Assembly (NCBI GenBank): GCA_044892505.1
Contig: CM097882.1
Coordinates: 496,620,001 to 496,684,000 of the forward strand
From: Schmidtea nova
Lineage: Eukaryota
Direction: 5' to 3'
Length of the DNA stretch: 64,000 nucleotides
Translations under genes and position numbers: made by a program
Notes under the pieces: model-generated
Told to the model about the DNA's origin: nothing
The model's database searches: none
What the model saw: the letters and a program-made list of their open reading frames with translations, nothing else
Part shown: positions 10,722 through 61,684 of the stretch, in pieces
Numbering within the stretch: position 1 is the stretch's first letter
Layout: each line of letters starts with the position of its first letter

Positions 10722-11378
10722 TGTAGTGCCTTAAATTATAAATTTCTTATTTTTAAAATTAATTAACTTATTAAATAATTATTGAATGAGAGATTTAAAT
10801 GGCATTGTTTTAATATTTACTTTTTTCGACATACTTTTTCAAATAAATCCAACATGGTCCAACAAGAACTCGCTATTTTTAATTCAAAATCAAGAAAGAA
10901 GTCAAATGAAATACTTTCAAATCCAAAAGTTGTGACGAATCAGAGATCTGTGGAAATACCGAGTGAAAAGAAGCTATCTGAATCGAATACTTATAAACTA
11001 TTGGATCGTGTCAATAATAATCATCAGTCATTGAATACAGGAAGTCTTTCATCTTCATCTCAGTTATGTACTCCGCTTGAAATGGCAAATTCTCATTTAC
11101 TCCAACAATTTCAAAACAATCCCCAATATTACTCGTTACTAAACATTCCTAATGAGTCTTTGACTTTCCGTGGCTGCATTATGAATCAGAGTGAAACCGA
11201 TAAAGAATTCAACCAAAAACCATTGAACCCCAAACAAACATGTGGAATGTACAAACATTGCCGAATCCCAGCACGATCAATCAAACCAACGAGTTAGGCT
11301 GTCAAAGATGTCATCAATTTCATTTTCGAATATATATTATTTTTATCTGTCTTATATCAAGTTGATTGTTTTCTTACA
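10722..11378 (+). repeat. 5' LTR (TG...CA, about 657 bp)
   Basis: Starts TGTAGTG and ends CTTACA, immediately before the PBS. Its first ~345 bp are repeated at 15885-16228 with about a dozen differences. Confidence 0.85.
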
Positions 11379-11380
11379 AT

Positions 11381-11394
11381 TAGTGTCAGAAGTG
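11381..11394 (+). promoter_or_regulatory. Primer-binding site, tRNA-Leu type
   Basis: TAGTGTCAGAAGTG has one mismatch to TGGTGTCAGAAGTG, the complement of the tRNA-Leu 3' end. It lies 2 nt after the LTR. Confidence 0.75.
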
Positions 11395-11622
11395 ACAAAC
11401 GTAAGTTTCATACCTTTCTCATGTAAATGTTTAACTTTGTCATCTATATCTTTCATTCGTAAAATATGTATAATGTTTTTTTGCAATTTTATTGAAATTT
11501 TTAAAAGCAATTTTCATTTTCACATTTTTAAAATTACAAAAGCAGTTTCGCCCACCTTTTCAGACCCCATTTATCTCCAAAACGACACCCTCAAAAGTTT
11601 GAATTTGCCAAGCCCACCTTCA

Positions 11623-12679
11623 ATGGCAAACAGCAAACTTAACATCATCGTACGTTACAACAACATTCTACATATAGTAAAAGTTACCCCGAAAAACTTC
11701 TTTAGGGACATAAAACATTTTTTTCAATAGAAAACAACGATTTCTATATCTCAAATAACAGAGTTCCTATCACAGATCCTCTTTCAGTTCCGATAAATTC
11801 AATAATCACACTCTTTGTACGGACAAGAGGCGGTTCCAAAACAAATAATGTCGATAACCCTTCCACAACCATAGGCCGCACTCAACTGATTTTCTTAGAT
11901 GTCGTCGGCACCCCATCATCTTGGTTCCGAATTTTGAAGCACACACAAAAGCCATTCCCAAATCCAGACAAGATCTTCTCTTAGATGCAATACCCGGCGA
12001 GTTAATGTCAAAATTAGGCTCACAAATAGCTGAAGAGTATTACTCAGAAACCCCATACGAATCAATCAAGGGGTCATACTAAAAAATATTTACCCACGCG
12101 CACTTCAGCGATCAAAAAGTTGCCAAACCCACCCTATACGCCGGCCAAGCCCCATCATCCTTTTTATCGCAACTAGTACGTGAACTCGAGGCAGCTAACA
12201 CCGGTCTATCGTAAAACAATGCTGTCCTATGTCATCATTTTTTAACAGTTCTCCCACATCACGTACAGTCCGCACTCTTCGTCGTCGATTCCGATGATCC
12301 ATTTCATCTAGCAAAAATCGCTTATAAGTTGGTCACACGACTACCTGTCCAAAACATACCACCTACCATCACATCAGTTTCCTACCCTTCAATACAGGAA
12401 CATATATCTTCTTTGACAGAAACAGTCAATGCGCTTTTCAAATCATCTCAACCAAATGTACGCTCCCAAAGAAACGACAAGTCGAATTCTTTTCCACTTC
12501 TGACTTGTTTTTCACAAGAAATTCTCTTCCGAAGCAAGAACATGTCATATCGGATGTTCATGGCCAAACCCTTCTATCACTTTGAGAATCATTCCTATTT
12601 GTATCTATCACAACTATTTCGGTTTACACGCACAAAAATGCCTGGCAGGTTGCACTTTTGTAAACCGTCCCTCAAATAA
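11623..12679 (+). pseudogene. gag with N-terminal ubiquitin-like domain (frameshifted)
   Basis: ATG at 11623; 1-nt slip in a T run near 11718-11724; ...SIITLFVRTRGG, then gypsy gag motifs PSSWFRIFEA, PYESIK, APSSFLSQL and FLTVLPHHVQSAL. Confidence 0.75.
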
Positions 12680-12799
12680 ATCACACGACAAAATTTATTC
12701 CAATTCTCCACAAAAAAACTAACTTCGTTGTCTGCTAACCCTGGATTTTCAGGCGGCGTCCTTGCAATCAGCAATTTTTTCACTGTTGAAGCAAACTTC

Positions 12800-15612
12800 G
12801 ATTCCAGCTCATCTATTGATTTTCTTGTCGATTCCGGCTAGTCATTTTCAATCCTTCCAACAACTTTCACACCAGATTTCAAATCTCCGTTCGCTGTCTT
12901 AGCCGCCAAAAGCACGCCGAGTCAATTTTTGGGAACAAAAAAAACTTTCATTCACAATACCAACATTAGACTCAACTTTCATTGACATTTTCCACATATC
13001 AGACACGATCCACCCACTACTAGGCTCCGATTTCTTATGCAAACAATCCATCATGGTAGATTACAAAAACCGCAAGTTGTTCACTTTAAAACAAGACATC
13101 GACTAAACATTAAAAAATTCATCGTCGAATGTAGCATCAGTCTCGACCCAGACATTACCAGTGACACAACTAAACTCGATTCAACAGATTTTTACGACGG
13201 AAAAGGCTTAACACACATTGCACATCAACCAATCAGTTAATCCAGATACAATGCACGACATGATCAAAATTATTACTAACAAATATCCAAATCTCATCAC
13301 TTAATCAACTACCATACCTCCCACTACCCTGTCGACTCACTTTATTCACACATTACCATGCATACCACAACACAATCGAGCCAGATCTCTCTCTTCCACC
13401 AAACTCGACGCTTTCAAAGCTGAATTCGTTATTCTAGAAAACGCGGGCATTATACGTATTGGGCTTCACCAATAGACGTAGTCACAAAAAAAGATGGATC
13501 ATTTAGACCTTGGTGAGATAATCGACAACTCAATCAACTAACTGTGCACGACGCATACCCAATGACACTCATAAAAGATGTAATAACACGCTTTTCTCAA
13601 TCTACCGTGTTCTCAACTATAGACCTCTCAAAAGCATACCACCAATTTCCCATTCATATCGACAACGTCCCAAAAAAAGCCATCACTACACCATTCGGAA
13701 ATTTGGACTATATGGTCTCAGAAATGCAGCTCAGTCCTTAGGGCGTTTCATGGATACAATTTTTCGTGACGTTCCTAACACTTTCGCATACCTCGATGAT
13801 ATTATCCTTGCGTCATCTGATTGAGGCAGCCAGGCGGACGATTTACACACGGTCCTTGACATATTAAACAGCCACAATTTACAGATAAACGTGAATAAAT
13901 GTATTTTTTTATCAACTGGTCCGACAAAACATGTGAATCATTCAAAAAAGTAAAAGGCGCTCTAGCCAAGGTCAACACTCTTCACTACCCGCCTCACGAC
14001 CTTCCATTCACCCTGACAACTGATGCATCCAATATTGCTGCAGGCGCAGTCCTTCACCAAATTAAGGACAGTATCTCACTACCCGCCTCACGACCTTCCA
14101 TTCACCCTGACAGTATCTTCACTACCCGCCTCATGACCTTCCATTCACCCTGAGAACTGATGCATCCAATATTGCTGCAGGCGCAGTCCTTCACCAAATT
14201 AAGGACAGTATCTCACTACCAAAAGAATTATTTCGAGAAAATTCTCATTGGCAGAGTCAAAATACAGTGCATTCGACAGAGAATTACTTGCTATTTTTTT
14301 GGCAGTCAAACATTTCAGTCACATTGTAGAAGGAAAGCAATTCACAATCTTTACTGACCACAAACCTCTCATCCATTGCCTCACCATGAAATACCCATCG
14401 AACAGAGTACACCGTCAGATAACATACCTATCAACTTTCGACATTAAGTTCATTTACGTTTCGGGTAAAGATAACGTAGTCGCCGATTATCTTTCTAGAA
14501 ACATTTCTGCATCAATTTCATCTACCCCGGTGTTTACCCAACAAATTCTTCGTTCAACTCCACCAATTACAGCTGATCTTGTCCGTTTTAAAAACTCGCT
14601 CGAGATAATTGACGGTATACATTACGACACAACGTATAAAAACACTCTCAGACCAATTTTACACTCGTCACTTAGAAAAGAAGCATTATTCGCTATTCAT
14701 AATCTGCATCACCCAGGAAAAAAGTCCAAATACCACCTCATACGACAAAAAATCACCTGGTTCTCATTATTCAAAGACATAAAACAGTGGGTTTCGGAAT
14801 TTTAAGGCTGCCAACAACACAAAACGAACAAACATACTAAACCACCAATCACACCATTCCCAATTGGTTCAAGATTCGACATACTCCACATCGACTTAGT
14901 AGGCAAACTTCCCGCTGACGATAGATTCTGCTACATCCTGACAATGATCGATAGGAAAATACGGTGGTTTCAAGCCGTCCCAGTTTCCGACATCTCTGAA
15001 AAAACGGTCGCACACGCCTTAATATCCACCTGGTTTTCACGTTATGGAATTCCAACCGCCATAATCACAGACTAAGGAACACAATTCGAATCAGATCTTT
15101 TCGAACAGTTCACCACCATTTACGAACCAGATCATATCACTCACAAACAAACGGTCTTGTAAAAAGCACCCATCGTACTTTAAAGTCATTCCTCAGAATA
15201 CTCTCGATGACAACTTCATGGACCAAAGCATTACCATTCGTCTTGCTTGGTTGACACAACACACCCAACCGCTCAAGTGGCGTGTCACCTTCACAACTTT
15301 TATTCGATTAAACACCTTCATGTCCAATGAACTCATAGACCTCCAGAAAGACTCGCCACTAGAGGAGATCAACCTCACCCGCAATCATTTTCTGAGTCTT
15401 GATACAAACCCATCTTTCACATACTCCACTTCATACCAACCGTTTATACCACAATCACTTTCTTCCGCCACCCACGCATGAATGAAGACAATTGACTCAT
15501 CAAACTTCAAAATTAGATACAAAGGCCCTTTTCGCATCATCGAACTATACAAAAACACGGTGAAACTAGAAATTGATAACAATCACATTATGGTCCACCT
15601 ATCACGATTATA
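12800..15612 (+). pseudogene. pol (PR-RT-RH-IN), disrupted
   Basis: FLVDSG*, DAYP, FSTIDLSKAYHQ, AITTPFG, YLDD, RNase H and integrase motifs are spread across frames. Part of RT is deleted and part of RNase H is tandemly duplicated. Confidence 0.9.
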
Positions 15613-15884
15613 ATCCTTTTGCACCCTTGAGTGTGACGAACTACCAAATTATCATATCACAAAAGAAAATCTTATAGAGGAAGACATTCTAGAAGGCACG
15701 GAACAACTGATGACTCTTACAAACACGTCCAATTTCCTACGTCCTCAAGACAACCCGCTATTCTTTTCAAGACGAGCACACAAACTCCCTCAATACCTCG
15801 TCAATTATGACCTTCAGTGACTTAATCAACACTTTAGCCCCTTTTGTAGCTTAGAGACGCTCCGCGTACTTCGGCGGGGGCTAA

Positions 15885-16228
15885 TATAGTGCCTTTAATT
15901 ATAAATTTCTTTTTTTTAATTAATTAACTTATTAAATAATTATTGAATGAGAGATTTAAATGGTATTGTTTTAATATTTACTTTTTTCAACATACTTTTT
16001 CAAATAAATCCAACATGATCCAACAAGAACTTGTTATTTTTAATTCAAAATCAAGAAAGAAGTCAAATGAAATACTTTCAAATCCAAAAGTTGTGACGAA
16101 TCAGAGATCTGTGGAAATACCGAGTGAAAAGAAGCTATCTGAATCGAATACTTATAAACTATTGGATCGTGTCAATAATAATCATCAGTCATTGAATACG
16201 GGAATTCTTTCATCTTCATCTCAGTTAT
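15885..16228 (+). repeat. 3' LTR, truncated by Penelope fragment
   Basis: Follows the G-rich tract CGGCGGGGG (15872-15880). Matches 10722-11067, then switches to Penelope sequence. Confidence 0.85.
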
Positions 16229-16790
16229 AGAAAGTCGACTGATACTAGCCTGAATACTACTCCTGAGAGTTTTTGTGAATTTAAATGTAAGAGGAATATG
16301 GTTACAGGATTGGTGTTTCGTGCTTGGTCCTTATCTGCTACGTTTGTTAATTCAGTAAAAGTTATTGGTGCCTTGGTTGAGTTGTTTCTTAAAAATGGTT
16401 ACTCTAAATCTTTTCTTGAGAAAATTTCAAAAGTGACTGTGGATAAGTTAGTGATGAATTCTAAATATTTTTGTATGGGTGTGTCTGAGGTATCTATTGA
16501 TATTGATAAAAGTACTTTATTAATTTCGGAAAGTGACAAAATTCAATCTTACCACACTGAGCCGAAATATATGTTGGTATTGCCTTATTCTTAGGGCTTC
16601 AGAGAATTTAAGTATAAGATTCTCAAGCATCTAGACAAGGATCAATTTAGGATTGTTTCCAAGTCTTGCAAAGTTAGGAGTATGTTTTCTAATAAATGTC
16701 CAACGCCACTCGGTTTGTGTTCTGAGCTCGTGTATCAATTTTCATGTAATAGATGCATTATCACATACATTGTCGAGACTGTCCGTCATA
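16226..16790 (+). mobile_element. Penelope-like element fragment (RT thumb plus start of GIY-YIG)
   Basis: YRKSTDT..., LVFRAW, LFLKNGY, LVLPY, LVYQFSCNRC..TYI.ET.RH. Confidence 0.8.
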
Positions 16791-17260
16791 TTAATAGATT
16801 TTTCCTCTTATTGTCTGCATTTTATATTTAAATTTTCCAAACCTCTATATTTGAATTTTTTTGAATTTAATTATATCTCTTTGAAATGCCCTTGTATTCA
16901 CTGTACTATCTCTTTTCTTCGTTTTCTTCATTTTGTCTTTATAAAGCCACATGTTTTTAACACAATAGTAAGTGTGCGATTTCGCTGACTTCCTCTTTAG
17001 TGTTAATTTTTGGGTGTTTGTCTCTAATGAGAATAGCTTCTTTAAGTCTGAGATTTCTTTCGTCATTTTCGCTTGTCAAAATTCTCACTGTTATTAATTT
17101 TTCCTTATTTTCTGTCTGACATTGTTGAAGATGTCTATATACAGATGACTTTCCACCGAGATCAAGATCTTCCTTAATTCTCTGATGCAAAGTCTCAAGG
17201 GTGCTCCCGATATAAATTTCTTCGCACTTATTACACATGATGCTAATCAAAATATATTAA
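16791..17260 (-). mobile_element. Penelope-like element 3' fragment (GIY-YIG endonuclease)
   Basis: ORF 16957-17250: CNKC..IYIGST...L.QRIKE, SSVYRHL, LKEAILI, P.IN. Confidence 0.85.
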
Positions 17261-17339: not shown

Positions 17340-17830
17340 ACATAAAAAAGGTCGACTTGGGAAAATTCCAAACATATAAAAATGGTCAGAATTAAATAAT
17401 TTCTAACTAAATCAACGGAAAATTGAACGACGAATGAAAAAAAGGTCAAAAAGTAGAAACATGAAAAATTGGTCTCGTCCTATCAAATTTTATACGTAAA
17501 AAGGGTTGACTTTCACAATTTCCAAAATTTTAAAAATGGTCAAAATTCAATTATTTTTATACCAATCTACTGAAAATTGAACGAGGAACAAAAAAGGGTA
17601 AAAAAGTAAAAACATGAAAAATTGGTCTTCATCCGATCAAATTTTGCACATAAAAAAGTAGACTCTCACAATTTCCAAAATTTTAAAAATGGTCAAAATT
17701 CAATAATTTTTATATGAATCTACTGAGAATTTAATGGCGAACAAAACACTGTGAAAAAAACCAAAACATGATAAATTGGTCTCATCCGACCAAGTTTTAT
17801 ATGTAAAAACCTTACTCTCACAATTTTCAA
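17340..17830. repeat. Tandem array, ~153 bp unit, about 3 copies
   Basis: AAATGGTCA(G/A)AATT recurs at about 17381, 17535 and 17688. AAAACATGAAAAATTGGTC recurs at the same period. Confidence 0.8.
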
Positions 17831-18359
17831 AAACTTAAACAAATAAACAAAATTATTTTTAACCTTTATGTATAGTCCTTGGATCTTTTTGAGAACTATT
17901 TCGAACAAATAAACTAAAGAATAAATTATTATAAAAAAATACTCTTACTTTTAGACATTTTCAAATCTTTGCAATCAAGTACTAACTATTAATACAAACA
18001 ATATTTATTTAATTAATTAATGTATTTATTTCATTAATTATATTTTCACATAATTTTTATAATTTTAAATTTTAATTCCAACAGAAAACCTTTGTCGCTC
18101 CAAAATAGATTAATACACATGGCAATAAATTTCTGTAGGTGTAATGACGGTAATATTTTGGGATTGAACCATAAACTAATAGCTCTAAATCAGTTAACCA
18201 ACAAATTAAGTACTCGCTAACCAACTACTTATACACACCGGATGACTCATAAATTACATCATCGATGACTCATTTCAAATTTGAATTTTATGACATTACT
18301 AGGTAGTTAATGGCTCTTTGGCGCACTTCAAATTCTACCCTTCCCCCTAGAAAAAAAAT

Positions 18360-18760
18360 GTTCTCTGCGTTAACGGGCCACTATGTTTTTCTGGCCATTT
18401 TTGTATTGTCGGTCTTTTGTACAGGTGCGTTAGCGGGCCATTATGTTTTTGGGTCGATCTTTTGTATTGGAAAATTTTTTTCGGTCTTTTGTACAGGGAT
18501 TTTGAGCTCCGAGATTTTTCTCGGGCAAAAAGAGACTCTGGTATTTTGTACATGGAATTTTGGTCGAGGTTTTTGTACAGCATTTTATACTCAAAGATTT
18601 TTCTAGGGCAAAAATGGATTCTGGTATTTTTGAATTAAATTACAAATTTTAATGGTAAATAAAAACACGTGTAAAATACATTGAAATTATTTTGAATAGG
18701 ATTTTCAAATCCCACAATTTCTCGGACAAAAAGAGACTCTAATAATTTTTATACAGAAAT
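18360..18760. repeat. Short GC-richer repeats downstream of pPolB (possible element terminus)
   Basis: GCGTTA(A/G)CGGGCCA twice; TTT(T)CT(C/A)GG(G/A)CAAAAA three times; TTTTGTAC repeatedly. Confidence 0.6.
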
Positions 18761-19174: not shown

Positions 19175-22091
19175 TTAAAATAAATCCTCTTCATCGTCTT
19201 CTTTTGTAACTTGATTAAATTCTCTGTCATCAATGTCTTTATAATGCCAGTATGCACAACTTTCATTTTTTTCCCACCCAAACCCTTTTATCATCATTAT
19301 TAGTTAGTGCAATTTTTGAATTTTTAAAGCTATATAACTGATGATTTTTTGTACCTATTCTAAATTGTGGTACACTAATCTCTGAGTTATTTAAATAACA
19401 TTTTACATATGAATCGTGGTCTATTTTAGTTTCCTTTAATGTTGCTCCCTTAGCTTTTGTAATATTAGTTTTACCCAACAAGCTGTAACATTTTGGTCTA
19501 AGGAAAATCCACTCATCATATCCTTCACCCTTACATTCATCTTTGAATTTCCCAATAACAGAATCCAATTTCTTGCTGTATAGTGGGTGATCAGTTGGAT
19601 AATTTGATGTATCTAACAAGTTATCATTTTTCATTTCATTTAATAATATTTCTAATTTTTAATTTCTAGAAAAAACAAATCTGTATCGCCTGCTACGATA
19701 TTTATCTGACAACTATATTTGTCGAGATATTTTTGTAAATCTTTGCATTGTAATTCGTACATTCGAAGTTTTGATAAATCAAGCACTGATTGTCTAATAT
19801 AACTCGGTCTATCTAATCAAATCGAATCTGGATTTAATAAAGCAGCAACTAAATTATCGTCGATTTTAATAGATTTTTTGAAAGAAGGTTTTGATGTATA
19901 TTTAACTAGTTTTTTCTCCGTTGAACATAATTTTAAATTCATTCTTCTTTTAAGATTTTCCACTATTTTGCCATACAGACTATTATTGAGTAATTTGAAA
20001 AAGTTTTTATCTAAAGTATTAGTACTTTTCGCCCGCAATTCAGTGTTGGTGTCTATATATATTTTGAAAATTGGAGATTGTTCAAATTTAACTGCTCTAT
20101 TTACCTTTGTGACTTTAACACCAAGTTCTAAATATAATTGAATTAATCGCCAATGAATTATATAATTATTTTTAGGGTAATGAGTCAATAGTAATTTTTC
20201 TACTTTTGAACCTCGTGGTTTCATTTTTTCTGCAGCTACCGGGAAATCATCCAAGAAATCATGAATTTCAGGAGGTATTTCCAAATCTACTTCTAAGGTG
20301 TAACCGTATGATATAGATTCAAGATTTAGATTAATACAGTCATGCAAAATATTATCTAAATTATCCGTCACCCAACTAAATGTTCGTAAGGTAAAGGTTC
20401 ACTTAAAGCCCATCCGTAAAGATTATTTATATAGATATACAATAATTCTGTATTTTCATCGGTTTTAACGAAGTTTTTATTTACAAAAGTTAAACCTCCT
20501 CGAATTCCCCCTTCATAAAAGCTAAACATTTCATTTTCTGTTATTAATTCTATTGGTTCATCTAAAGTCATTAAAGAAGATGACCAAGACATGCCAGGAA
20601 TACCGAAGTAATTCAATGGCTCTAATCTATTGTGAGCTATAGATTTGGTTCGAAATTGCTGAATGAAATCAGCCAAAAGAAAGCAATCAAGTTTCAAATA
20701 AGTCATCATATAATCTAAAAGAGTAACACAGTTTGTTTCTGTCCAAATCAGTTGTGCCTTTTCATATTCTTCTTTTGAAACAACTTTCCAGATTGGTGGT
20801 AACTCATAAGTATTCTCAAGTACTTCTAAACTTGTAGCAAAGCTATATGGAAAAATACCCTTTTCAGAAACAATAGTTCCATTAAAAACCGAATTTGCCA
20901 AAGGTAAAGATTTCAACGTTTTCACTGCCTTTGCCAAAGAATCATTCACAAACTGGTATGAGTCTATAAATCTTAAACTAATCTTGCCAACCTGAGCTAT
21001 CAATGAAATAAAATTTTCAGTTGTAATAGGTATACAACCCAATGACCAATTCTTGAACTTATTTAATCCGTGTTTAAGAATATGGTGCATATCGTATCCT
21101 TTCAAGTTATGAAAAACTATTGGTAAAAACGATAATTTATTTTGTTAAACCATTTATAAACAAATGCTTTGGTGACAATTCATTAAACGTTTTAAATTTA
21201 TAATAGGTACATAATGATATTTTTACCCTACATTTAATAACAATAAATTTATAGTTTTTCCTTCTATTACTTTTGACCGATGAATAATATCCAAATGAGG
21301 ATGTTTTAAAATATAATCATCTTGCTCTTCATTAGTTTTATTATTATAACATAGTACATTTATGATCAATCTTGGATTCTTTGCCTCGAATTTTCTGATA
21401 CTATTTAATTTCATTGGCATGTCTGATATATCATATTTAAGCTCTGACAAAAAATTTGTATATTATTATACTCTTTCTCTATCTCTAGATATTAAATCAT
21501 ATTTTAATATAGCTAAAATGCTATATAAAAAACATAAATTGTCCTTATTATCGATGTTTAATATACATCTCTTTCCTTTTAATCCTTCAGGAGTTTTTTA
21601 ATGCTTCTAGCTGCTCACCTACTTATATTGGATATCTTAATTACAACAAAACTTATTTCATTAATACGATTAAGTACCCAACTGCTACCTAATTCCGCAA
21701 ATGAAGTTATCTTTTCATTCAATTTTTTAATTCCCTCTTCGAAAAATGTCTGTGTCAGAGGTTTTGCACTATTGGAAATATTGTTTCTTTTAATTTCTCC
21801 ATCTTTCTCAAATTCAACACAGATACCAAATTGTATCTTCACATAGCCTATTTCGTTAATTATTTCTATTAATTTATTAATTAATGATTGTGGAAAAATA
21901 ATTTGCTTTATATTTAAATCACTAGTGTCAATTTTTAAAATCCTATGCGATCCATTTAAATCACTTTCAATGACAGAGAGAGGTTCTATAACACTTCCTC
22001 CAGTTTGATAAAATCCAACGTTCCAAAAATCTTCAATCTCTTCGACCGCTTCAATTAAAATCTTGTTTTCATCCGTTTCGTCCGCTTCCAT
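19175..22091 (-). pseudogene. Polinton/Maverick-type protein-primed family B DNA polymerase (TP-vOTU-exo-pol), disrupted and internally deleted
   Basis: KIQFGICVEF..GSSWVL, NIDNKDNLCFLYSILA, YHYVPI, IVFHNLKGYD, FIDSYQF, KGIFPY, DCFLLAD, IRGG, NNLYGWAL, YTLEVDL, KLLNNSLYGK, GDTD-like remnant, FLRPKCYS, KAKG, DDKR. Multiple stops and frameshifts. Confidence 0.9.
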
Positions 22092-22151
22092 CGCTTCTAA
22101 TAAAATCTTGTTTTCAATCTCTTCTTGTAAATTTTGTGATTTCTTGATTAT

Positions 22152-22864
22152 TTATTTGTTCAATTTAATCTGTTTATTATTTGTAGGGTTTTGAGTCAAG
22201 TTTGGTCTTTTAAATAATTTTATTTTCTTAGACCTATATTCATTTAAATGATCCTTATGTTCATCGTAAAAATTTTTATATGTAAGGGGTTGGGAAGTTT
22301 GGCATACGGGACATATATAATAGCGAATTTTATAATAAGAGTGTCCATAATATTGCTCCATTGATCGATGACAATTATCGTTGTGGTCAGTTGAAAAGCA
22401 ATAATTTGGGTATAAAGCACCTATGAATTTAAAGTAATGTTAAAAGAAATAATAATATTATTATCAAAAATATATAATTACAAATATTTTACTAAAGTTA
22501 TTTACTAAATTAATTAAAATAACTATCAAAATATAATCAAATTAATTAAAATTAATCTATACTTACATTGAACATTCAATACCACATCAGGTATAACTCC
22601 ATTATTCATAATATTCTCATTATTAATAATCTCAGCTTGTAAGGTAGTTTGTTCAGTCATATTTACATCACCTAAAGTAAAAGTTAAATAATTTACTAAC
22701 TTAATGATTAAGTACCATTCTCTTCCGCATTTTCTAACATCGAATTCCCAATTGAATTATTGATATTACCTAAATTAATACTAAATGATAATAAATTAAA
22801 AAATAAATTTACCATTTTCTTTTCCACTTTGGTTTTCGTTCATAAAACTTGTTATAATGTTCAT
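22152..22864 (-). CDS. Four-exon 159-aa Cys/His-rich protein (putative zinc finger) upstream of pPolB
   Basis: Exons 22864-22813, 22769-22716, 22671-22567 and 22420-22152 are joined by phase-1 GT-AG introns of 43, 44 and 146 nt. They give a 480-nt uninterrupted ORF with YICPVC...F..EHKDH. Confidence 0.7.
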
Positions 22865-23429
22865 TTTAAATGTTTATTATTTGTTAAAGTGAATAATGAA
22901 TGAAAAAGTATTGTTTATATATCAAAGTTATTACACACATTACCTTTGACCAATAAAAATCGAGTAAGGGGTAGGAAATTTATTCTTATCAGCCAATCAG
23001 AATCGAGTAAGAGGCAGTAAAGGTATTATTATCATCAAATCAAGTTCAAGAAAATGATAGAGAATTATGACTAAATATATATTACGTTGCAGTATTTTAA
23101 AAAACTTTAAAAGTTATTTCAGCAAATTATAATTTACATCAAATTTATAAAAAATTTCAATGAATTGCATACATGTCATAATATTAAAATTATTAGACTA
23201 AATATTTCAGTGAATTACATCTAAATTATATTACATTTCAATAATTACGTCAGTTATAAAAATTATTTTAATTAATTTTGATAAAATACGTTAGAATTAT
23301 CAATAACACACACAAAACTTTTATAATTTTCATTAGTATATGATAGAAAATTAAATTATATCTACACATGATTACAATAAATATTTGATAAATCTATGAT
23401 AAATAGCCGAAAAAATCCAGCATTTTATT

Positions 23430-24070
23430 ACAAAACACGTGTGCATCACAAACATATCGATATACCTCATTTTTAATAAAGCTATTTTGTAGGCAATTAA
23501 AATTTATCTATATGTAATTACAATGAAAACTCACTAAAGTTATTTTAAATAGCTAAAAATTACAAAATACGACAACTTTCATATTTCTAATCAAGCCATT
23601 TTGTAGAAAATTAAATTTTATCTCTACAGTATTACAATGAAAACTTATTAAAAATTACTTTATATAGACGAAATATGGAAATTTAAGTACATGTGTGTGC
23701 ATTAAAACACACCAACAAACTAATTTTCTAATCAAGCCATTTTATAGGAAATTAAATTTTACTTATACTTTATTACAATGAAAAATACATAAAGTTACTT
23801 TATATTGTTAAAAATTTGAAAATTCAAAATAAAACACGTGTGCATCGCAGAATACGACAACCTTCAGATTTCTAATAAAGCCATTTTGTAGACAACTAAA
23901 TTTTATCTATACAATATTACAATGAAACCCCAAAAGAGTTATTTTATTTAAGTGAAATATACAAATTTAATTAAAAACACGTGTGCACAACACAATACGC
24001 AACAATTTAAATTTTGGATAAAGCCATCTTGTAGAGAATTAAATTCTGCCTATACATTGTTACACTGAAA
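23430..24070. repeat. Tandem array, ~143 bp unit, about 5 copies
   Basis: AAGC(C/T)AT...GTAG..AATTAAA.TT...TTACA.TGAAA recurs at roughly 123-144 bp spacing. AAACACGTGTGCA is present in several units. Confidence 0.8.
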
Positions 24071-24257
24071 ACCTGATCATATCCAGATAAAATGTCAAAA
24101 AGTACGTGAGAAAAAACGGGAGAGTAGGAGGAAGTGTGGACGGGAGGAACATATTTTTTTTTGAAAAAATTTTAAGTTTTTTGAAATTTTTGAAATTTTG
24201 TCAAAAAATTTGAATTTTTAAAAATTTTGAAAAAAAAAATTTAATAACTCATCGTTT

Positions 24258-24782
24258 TCAAAAAAAATCTGCACTGACCACGTTTCTTGAGACTAACGCC
24301 ACGGAATTATATTCCATTTGCATCATCGACCTTGCCTGATGCACAACCTCGTCCATTGTCATTGTTGTAATCTTGGAACTGGCCCTGAGAAATTTGGCTA
24401 CCTCTGATGAAAGACCAGTAATAAATGCACATCTCAGCGTATCATCCCCATTGATGTTTGCCAACGAAAGTAATCGGAGTAAATTTGCCAAGAAATCGTC
24501 TACCGGTTCGTTGCACCACCTTCTGTTTCGAAACAATTCGAAAGCAGTAAAACAGTCCATTGAATATGCACTAATTAGTGCATTTTTAATAGCTCCGGCA
24601 TTCTTCTTCTGATCTTCGGATAGGTTTTGGTAAACTGCGAATGCTGCAGCATTGAGAAACAAAAGAAGGACATCAGCGATCTCGTCCACCTTCTGTAGCT
24701 TAGACACTAGTTTCACCTTCATCAGCCATTGAATTACATCTCCATCTCCAGAGAATACCGAGATTGATTTTAATTTGTCCAT
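24258..24782 (-). mobile_element. Truncated Ty3/gypsy-type gag ORF (174 aa)
   Basis: FSGDGDVIQWL.KV.LV.KLQ, LFL...AFAVY, EPVDDFLA.L.RL, AFITGL. The ORF ends at a junction with a T/A low-complexity tract. Confidence 0.75.
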
Positions 24783-24797
24783 TTGGCCCGGATATCT

Positions 24798-24879
24798 TGA
24801 AGAGAAGACAAATCTAAATTAACGAGATTAATGTTTATTACTAATCAAAATCACTATTTATAAGTAAATATATGTTACA
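24798..24879 (-). repeat. Putative short LTR (82 bp) upstream of gag
   Basis: Minus strand reads TGTAACA...TATAAATA...AATAAA...CTCTTCA and ends 16 nt before the gag ATG. No second copy is present in the window. Confidence 0.5.

Positions 24880-26725: not shown

Positions 26726-61684
<34,959 letters not shown>

Follow-up and report, generated by a model that had tools for sequence, protein, structure and literature searches.

The four exons at positions 22152 to 22864 of the window, by which we mean the whole 64,000-nucleotide stretch of Schmidtea nova DNA analyzed here, most probably represent the 5' end of a predicted-spliced pPolB gene, lying in a decayed arm of a palindromic, high-copy element that is likely integrated in trans. 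The reading frame, the architecture, the ends, the target duplications, and the absence of other genes are all observed directly: a spliced-type 5' structure is fused to pPolB, and duplications of the integrase type flank an element that has no integrase. The element is a new, polymerase-only palindromic derivative rather than an autonomous Polinton, and works like one half of one. The initial annotation had taken the same exons, which lie next to a dead polymerase, for a spliced gene in its own right, with a regulatory or early role and possibly retained by the host. Its introns look real and its suggestion of a fusion was well founded; the separate regulatory gene did not survive comparison with other copies.

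Reading frame at the window locus

From the ATG at 22864 on the minus strand, a 159-residue product can be reconstructed in the window sequence by way of three GT-AG introns of phase 1 (43, 44, and 146 nt), and the sequence confirms both this four-exon structure, as first proposed, and the presence in the product of the quoted Cys/His and tail motifs (Table 1). The open chain by itself is no better than chance. It is contained in a search for GT-AG introns of at least 30 and at most 250 nt, in which 1,236 three-intron chains end at the same stop, so that the open frame alone proves little; support for the model comes from conservation.

The stop at 22152-22154 is a lesion of one decayed copy and not the end of a separate gene. 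It lies in the same frame as the ORF at 22151-21615 and directly abuts it, so the overlap of a few codons that had been described between the two frames is in fact a stop that immediately precedes the second. At this site, 16 of 19 other fetched copies have a sense codon, 2 have a stop at the same codon, and 1 is frameshifted. Of the 149 best-matching copies in a protein search with exon 4, 148 read beyond the window stop into a longer open frame, which extends to at least 1,200 codons in 96 of them. The first 109 codons are open in 30 of 45 distinct copies, the remainder having the same stop (2) or other stops (13). The description of the gene as intact therefore fails, its stop sitting inside the pPolB frame, and what had been offered only as an aside, an ancestral fusion, holds for nearly all copies and for metagenomic relatives, in which the long pPolB frame begins with the Cys/His exon.

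The window locus is one of hundreds of copies. A DNA search of the host genome (1.25 Gb) listed 40 scored copies at 93-100% identity, and searching with the exon 4 protein yielded 150 scored matches, or at least 150 near-identical copies, a set that favors young copies since the best-scoring ones were sampled.

Table 1. Features of the element arm in the window, with the evidence for each
Feature	Positions	Strand	Evidence
Exon 1 and predicted start codon	22813..22864	-	ATG in 56/58 copies; pN/pS 0.27
Intron 1, 43 nt	22770..22812	-	GT in 58/58, AG in 54/58 distinct copies
Exon 2, 54 nt	22716..22769	-	Window chain and copy comparison
Intron 2, 44 nt	22672..22715	-	GT in 57/58, AG in 56/58 distinct copies
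Exon 3, 105 nt, Asn-rich leader	22567..22671	-	Window chain and copy comparison
Intron 3, 146 nt, phase 1, splits first Cys codon	22421..22566	-	GT in 58/58, AG in 56/58 distinct copies
Start of last exon, two Cys/His modules, pPolB N-terminal domain, predicted zinc-binding	22155..22420	-	Invariant residues, model
Premature stop creating apparent 159-aa gene	22152..22154	-	Same frame as ORF 22151-21615
pPolB body, broken	19178..22151	-	PF03175 matches; stops, frameshifts, ~570 bp gone
Outer end, degenerate AGTAG-type terminus	18298..18365	+	Matches the two termini of young copies in alignment
Subterminal short repeats, ~71 bp in other copies	18366..18675	+	Staggered self-matches
~143-bp tandem repeat array, inner side of arm, variable unit number	23324..24078	.	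Unit counts compared among copies
Start of central segment, of the type shared with L027/L028; element breaks off	24085..24267	.	Alignment

Predicted introns

The three introns are probably real, a judgment that follows from the conservation of the splice sites and of the acceptor position across copies and families. Their GC contents are 9, 18, and 11%, respectively, against 27-32% in the exons. Donors and acceptors are kept in nearly all of 58 distinct copies (Table 1), among which the length of intron 3 varies freely (129-146 nt in the common classes of other copies) and the exon lengths only rarely. Within the 86% subfamily, where exon 1 is altered by +3 nt, one copy retains all six splice sites and another has its last acceptor shifted.

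The last acceptor can be followed further still. In 13 of 13 host-genome copies of diverged families, the polymerases of which are only ~60-69% identical, AG|G is found exactly 17 nt ahead of a conserved Y/F-C, after an AT-rich tract. All six metagenomic motifs are without this acceptor and have instead a Met and a Cys just upstream, with the Cys codon exactly at the junction position in two of the six. In one-piece relatives, short phase-1 introns, most of them 40-57 nt long, follow one another in a run that ends in T|GTAAG. Their internal exons, on splice chains chosen by eye from lists with many other candidate sites, are of 81-162 nt and are multiples of three in three copies, with one exception in a fourth, a listed L290/L291 exon of 68 nt. 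In four sequencing runs of unrecorded kind, all of one study, coverage extends over introns as well as exons, and of the 15 joints listed (of 37) none coincides with an intron, a result that speaks neither for nor against splicing. Host splicing would join the Asn-rich leader to the two-module Cys/His domain with which a pPolB of ~1,330 residues would begin.

The Cys/His module and the polymerase

The two modules have the pattern C-x6-C-x4-H-x3-C, followed by C-x2-C...F...H-x2-H, and nine aligned relatives all keep residues C7, H12, C16, C36, F50, H54, and H57 of exon 4. A structure model, with pLDDT >90 at residues 21-60, places strands and then a helix here, and the module is likely to bind zinc. 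Fold searches with the model in the PDB and BFVD gave nothing at E ≤ 0.001; the best matches were to C2H2 fingers, weak at E ≥ 0.67, and the His spacing here is H-x2-H. Pfam returned no match to a classical C2H2 zinc finger on the module. Judged from sequence, the motifs are an N-terminal module of the pPolB clade: of 81 database homologues of the N-terminal half of pPolB, 9 match the Cys/His exon at their N terminus (E ≤ 3e-4), and none outside the family matches exons 1-3. In the metagenomic contig L128, both modules open the pPolB frame; in a second, L129, the Cys/His ORF is free-standing, upstream of its pPolB.

That the adjacent polymerase is broken was correctly recognized. We count seven stops, including that at 22152-22154, four changes of frame, and a loss of ~570 bp between 21159 and 21130, which removes residues ~425-616 with their Endonuclease VII-like stretch and recurs as a gap in every alignment of the window with other copies. 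What is left is 87-97% identical in amino acid sequence to a long-frame copy in which polymerase motifs A, B, and C are present. Two window ORFs match PF03175 (E 1.7e-18 and 1e-7), a domain also carried by homologues of pPolB. The full-length frame gives no PF03175 match, its only Pfam matches being to Endonuclease_7, below the curated cut-off (E 8e-5 and 4e-4, the latter at residues 573-609). For residues 1-420, there is no call from Pfam, NCBIfam, or Atlas and no match to an OTU-like domain, the best Atlas score of 0.87 being a lead only. PDB sequence searches with pPolB and with the capsid described below found no match, and the label "TP domain" that had been attached to this region was returned by no tool applied.

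The palindromic carrier element

Among the 150 best matches, 116 are arranged head to head in 58 pairs with a spacing of 3.5-7.7 kb, and no pair is tail-to-tail or on the same strand. Each of the ten young pairs that were fetched is one insertion, 12.6-16.5 kb long, bounded by AGTAG...CTACT and by a 6-bp direct duplication of the target; the terminal inverted repeats span 6.3-7.5 kb. The sole long ORFs in these elements are those of pPolB, one per arm; integrase, ATPase, major and minor capsid, and protease genes are absent from all ten complete copies and from behind 20 further sampled ends of this family (here termed A), 17 of which lead into pPolB and 3 of which break off. For one variant of the end motif, the host genome contains 503 exact matches, with 0 for the control.

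The arms of one element show 0-2 mismatches in their outer 5.3 kb; different elements differ by 9-37 mismatches in 3.8 kb. Each arm carries 4-15 units of the ~143-bp repeat, the number of which is the main source of length variation among copies and is unequal between the two arms (7/11, 15/9, and 5/7). Between them lies a unique center of ~260-300 bp, the same in unrelated insertions. The same four sequencing runs of unrecorded kind cover all 30 bins across the center of one young copy, and no contig spans it; this coverage is not counted as support for the palindrome.

The window holds one arm, from 18298 to ~24267, and no second one. Many of the older copies, nearer to that of the window, are incomplete and have inverted repeats of ~0.2-3.5 kb; those with both ends still carry the 6-bp duplication, in a survey that left out L069-L073. 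Of 20 broken pairs, 7 share lesions between their arms and 13 differ in open-frame length. In copies examined individually, both arms have the same stop in L007/L008 and the same deletion in L013/L016. One frameshift occurs in all four arms of two elements from different sub-lineages; it may mark a site prone to mutation or an error that the assembly repeats, and a reading of it as the mark of an inherited defective lineage was dropped. At L035/L036 and L039/L040, inversions run into the flanking DNA and there is no target duplication. These are possibly element-seeded rearrangements or assembly artefacts, and some pairs thus have another origin.

The B family and one-piece relatives

A search of the host genome with the integrase of L128 gave 110 matches, many in inverted pairs ~7,016 bp apart. 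These are only 59-63% identical to the query, and all seven that were fetched have ends or genes of a sister family, here termed B, with which the A-family ends share only AGTAG. Six of the seven are complete palindromes with genes for ATPase, integrase, a penton-like protein, and capsid, and no pPolB; the seventh is interrupted. This B2 form (L218-L235; e.g. G000:C1:17,243,516-17,257,751) is 13.3-14.2 kb long, with arms ~99.8% alike, one penton-like gene, a protease gene at the center, and 6-bp duplications in five of five copies checked. Its integrase, ATPase, and protease are supported by Pfam, and its capsid by 56% identity to an ORF of L128 together with an Atlas lead (score 0.98; 15% of the members of the matched cluster carry PF21738). 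A B1 form (L278-L283, L320, and L321) has the same ends, is 14.6-14.8 kb in three complete copies, and contains 3.5-3.9-kb inverted repeats with a TBP-like gene, remnants of protease or capsid genes, no integrase, and a central pPolB that is 62% identical to that of the A family. B1 and B2 share their first 1,843 nt at 96-98%.

The B end motif has 245 exact matches. Among 100 places listed, 32 B end pairs enclose integrase only (15), pPolB only (12), both (1), or neither (4), and two of the last four proved to be structural once fetched. Complementary segments with matching termini are thus found in the B family; for A ends, 0 of 20 sampled leads to a complementary structural segment. One B-ended element of 16,159 bp (C1:41,160,174-41,176,332; ends L260 and L261) is flanked by a 6-bp duplication and contains a pPolB and an integrase match in convergent order; it is a candidate one-piece parent or recombinant.

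One-piece relatives with repeats of ~0.9-1.4 kb are also present in the host genome, although the seven fetched are mostly frameshifted, and two metagenomic loci, L128 and L137, are one-piece Polintons in which Pfam identifies an integrase and an ATPase. A ubiquitin-conjugating-enzyme-like ORF is present in L128, as is a TBP-like gene (PF00352, E 1.7e-18; L128:11333-11806), which occurs in host-genome relatives too. The integrase gene of the one-piece L284-L297 and L216 has a GT-AG intron of 44 nt (41 nt in L216) at the same site in eight of eight, and that of B2 has none there. Searches for Pox_A32 (4 matches) and DJR (126) led to other Polinton families; none of seven regions fetched from them had A-family ends. 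A pattern scan of IMG/VR gave 86 matches, none of them confirmed. A polymerase tree of 16 rows leaves the A, B1, and one-piece lineages and the base unresolved and does not place the A family inside any sampled family; eight metagenome loci, four short genome rows, and six of nine P proteins were dropped from it (anchor motif missed or <300 aa).

Origin of the palindromes

The A family would arise by copy-back, in which the pPolB end of a one-piece Polinton is copied onto itself and the inverted copy replaces the integrase/capsid half. Folding of the displaced strand would give a ~7-kb hairpin whose origin is intact, and this would account for the near-identical arms. pPolB would replicate the element, and a retroviral-type integrase, supplied by the palindromic B2, by one-piece relatives, or by other Polinton families, would insert it in trans. 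The B family would serve as a precedent, both reciprocal copy-back products being present in the same genome together with a candidate parent. Fold-back replication fits the lesions that are shared by both arms, although arm identity could also come from gene conversion after insertion. No one-piece parent with A-family ends was found at the 20 ends sampled. A tentative extension, which we regard as possible but clearly less probable, is that this Polinton lineage is a multi-part, self-complementary system of ~14-kb fold-back segments, carrying either a spliced polymerase or integrase and capsid, that complement one another in trans across different ends and are limited by packaging. In such a system the A family would be the segment that carries the polymerase alone and has come to outnumber its helpers; that the shared size of ~14 kb reflects a packaging limit is speculation.

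That a separate regulatory gene has stayed intact next to a dead polymerase, whether kept by the element or by the host, is now largely refuted and scarcely credible. The 159-aa frame is open in the window copy, two of 19 other copies do stop at the same codon, and L129 has a separate Cys/His ORF, but both same-stop copies are damaged elsewhere in the exons (one has lost a Cys and the other has a frameshifted exon 2), and the best matches read past the stop with a single exception. The proposed comparison of selection with pPolB, run as pN/pS on non-independent pairs, gave 0.49 for exons 1-3 (span 0.27-0.71), 0.45 for exon 4, and 0.53 for the downstream polymerase; with values equal on either side of the stop, nothing singles out the 5' part. 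Moreover, in a copy that retains ~94-95% identity to young ones, a lesion-free stretch of 0.7 kb is nothing unusual. Retention by the host founders on the same pN/pS values and on the at least 150 near-identical copies, which do not describe a domesticated, low-copy gene.

The remaining alternatives concern the palindromes, as opposed to the copy-back product that we favor. It is unlikely, although somewhat less so than the others, that the A family is the polymerase segment of a two-part Polinton with a same-ended structural segment that was missed; the sister B family is split in exactly this way and its forms share their first 1,843 nt, yet none of the 20 sampled A-type ends leads to structural genes, and all seven elements fetched from the integrase search had B-type ends or genes. 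Head-to-head recombination at or after insertion, followed by gene conversion, would make the palindrome something other than a replicating form. Such an origin would accommodate the inversions into flanks at two loci, the many single-arm or partial copies, and the 13 broken pairs with unequal open frames, and is nonetheless improbable, given that in all ten young pairs (and also in L021-L023, L024-L026, and L053/L054) the palindrome as a whole lies within a single 6-bp duplication, that the same center recurs across unrelated insertions, and that the 150 matches contain no tail-to-tail or tandem pairs. Very improbable is an assembly artefact from fold-back long reads, to which one might attribute arms that are 99.9% alike, the 99.6% inversion extending into the flanks at L039/L040, and the inability of short-read contigs to bridge a whole element. 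Against this, the left and right flanks differ and carry the direct 6-bp duplication, the symmetry stops exactly at the element ends, the center is non-palindromic, and the repeat numbers differ between arms.

Comparison with known systems

Published accounts present Polintons as one-piece elements whose terminal repeats are short and whose core genes lack introns; the replication of Polintons has been deduced rather than observed. The A family resembles Polintons/Mavericks in its pPolB, AGT-type ends, 6-bp duplication, and total length, which is within the vertebrate range, and its one-piece relatives, in the host genome and in metagenomes, carry the integrase, ATPase, capsid, and protease of Polintons. 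The A family itself has none of these four. Intact vertebrate elements are 12.7-24.6 kb long (PMC8097293; 10.1101/2023.08.22.554363), and vertebrate Mavericks have terminal repeats of 46-1,447 bp and intronless genes (Barreat and Katzourakis 2021, PMC8097293), whereas the 6.3-7.5-kb repeats of the A family hold an entire pPolB, giving two polymerase genes. Nematode elements are described as having intronless core genes and cargo genes with introns (10.1101/2022.07.12.499685); unlike these and the vertebrate elements, the A-family pPolB has predicted introns. Introners are reported in Maverick-Polinton-like proviruses of dinoflagellates (10.1101/2025.03.18.643946), and are likewise introns within Polinton-like elements, but recent and transposon-made; the A-family positions are instead conserved across families at ~60% protein identity, the last splitting a conserved Cys codon.

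An HNH insertion marks some pPolB2 (Jeong et al., 10.1101/2023.08.22.554363), and the PolB of Alpha-class adintoviruses is a pPolB with an inserted HNH nuclease (Starrett et al., PMC8502044). The present protein is like them in combining a PF03175-type polymerase with a below-cut-off Endonuclease_7-like stretch, and unlike them in its predicted spliced Asn-rich leader, its two Cys/His modules, and the lack of an OTU match in Pfam. Bidnaviruses are bipartite, with matching segment termini and a pPolB (PMC8502044). Like B1 and B2, they split polymerase and structural genes between segments with matching ends; the B forms differ in integrating with target duplications and in being internally palindromic, and the structural form has an rve integrase and a double-jelly-roll-like capsid. 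The A family has no matching second segment.

In copy-back or snap-back defective genomes of linear viruses and in self-complementary AAV, one end of the parent is duplicated in inverted form, the termini are kept, and a helper is needed. A elements differ from snap-back genomes in that they are integrated, outnumber their parent, and have an open polymerase frame, of predicted spliced type, in both arms. The literature listings searched showed no published description of palindromic or split Polintons. Passages of PMC8532177, PMC6431247, and 10.64898/2026.10.13.758929 describe no palindromic pPolB architecture, and the last of these treats repeat-bracketed replicase modules.

Implications

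A young, abundant family with a mirrored polymerase, found beside reciprocal forms, would be a natural record of strand-displacement or fold-back intermediates. Together with the B forms, the A family points to integration in trans, and B1 and B2 suggest a route from one-piece to bidnavirus-like segmented genomes. The conserved introns of pPolB and of the integrase of its relatives point to long residence in the nucleus; because of such introns, ORF-based annotation truncates these genes. Long palindromes, present in their hundreds, could in addition seed rearrangements of the host genome.

Neighboring features of the window

On the outer side of the arm, a decayed LTR retrotransposon at 10750-16210 has RT, RNase H, and integrase-like frames and ~300-bp direct repeats that are 97% identical. 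It is followed by a Penelope-like remnant at 16196-17256, with a GIY-YIG match (E 3e-4), and by 153-bp tandem repeats at 17345-17839 that adjoin the element end. At the break of the element, a 186-aa minus-strand frame (24258-24818) is gag-like by eye and has no Pfam match. Host gene exons with a PPP phosphatase motif, which we take from that motif to belong to a calcineurin/PPP phosphatase, are found at 26865-27420, and their 59-nt intron (27125-27183) is the one host intron against which the proposed match to host mini-intron size was checked.
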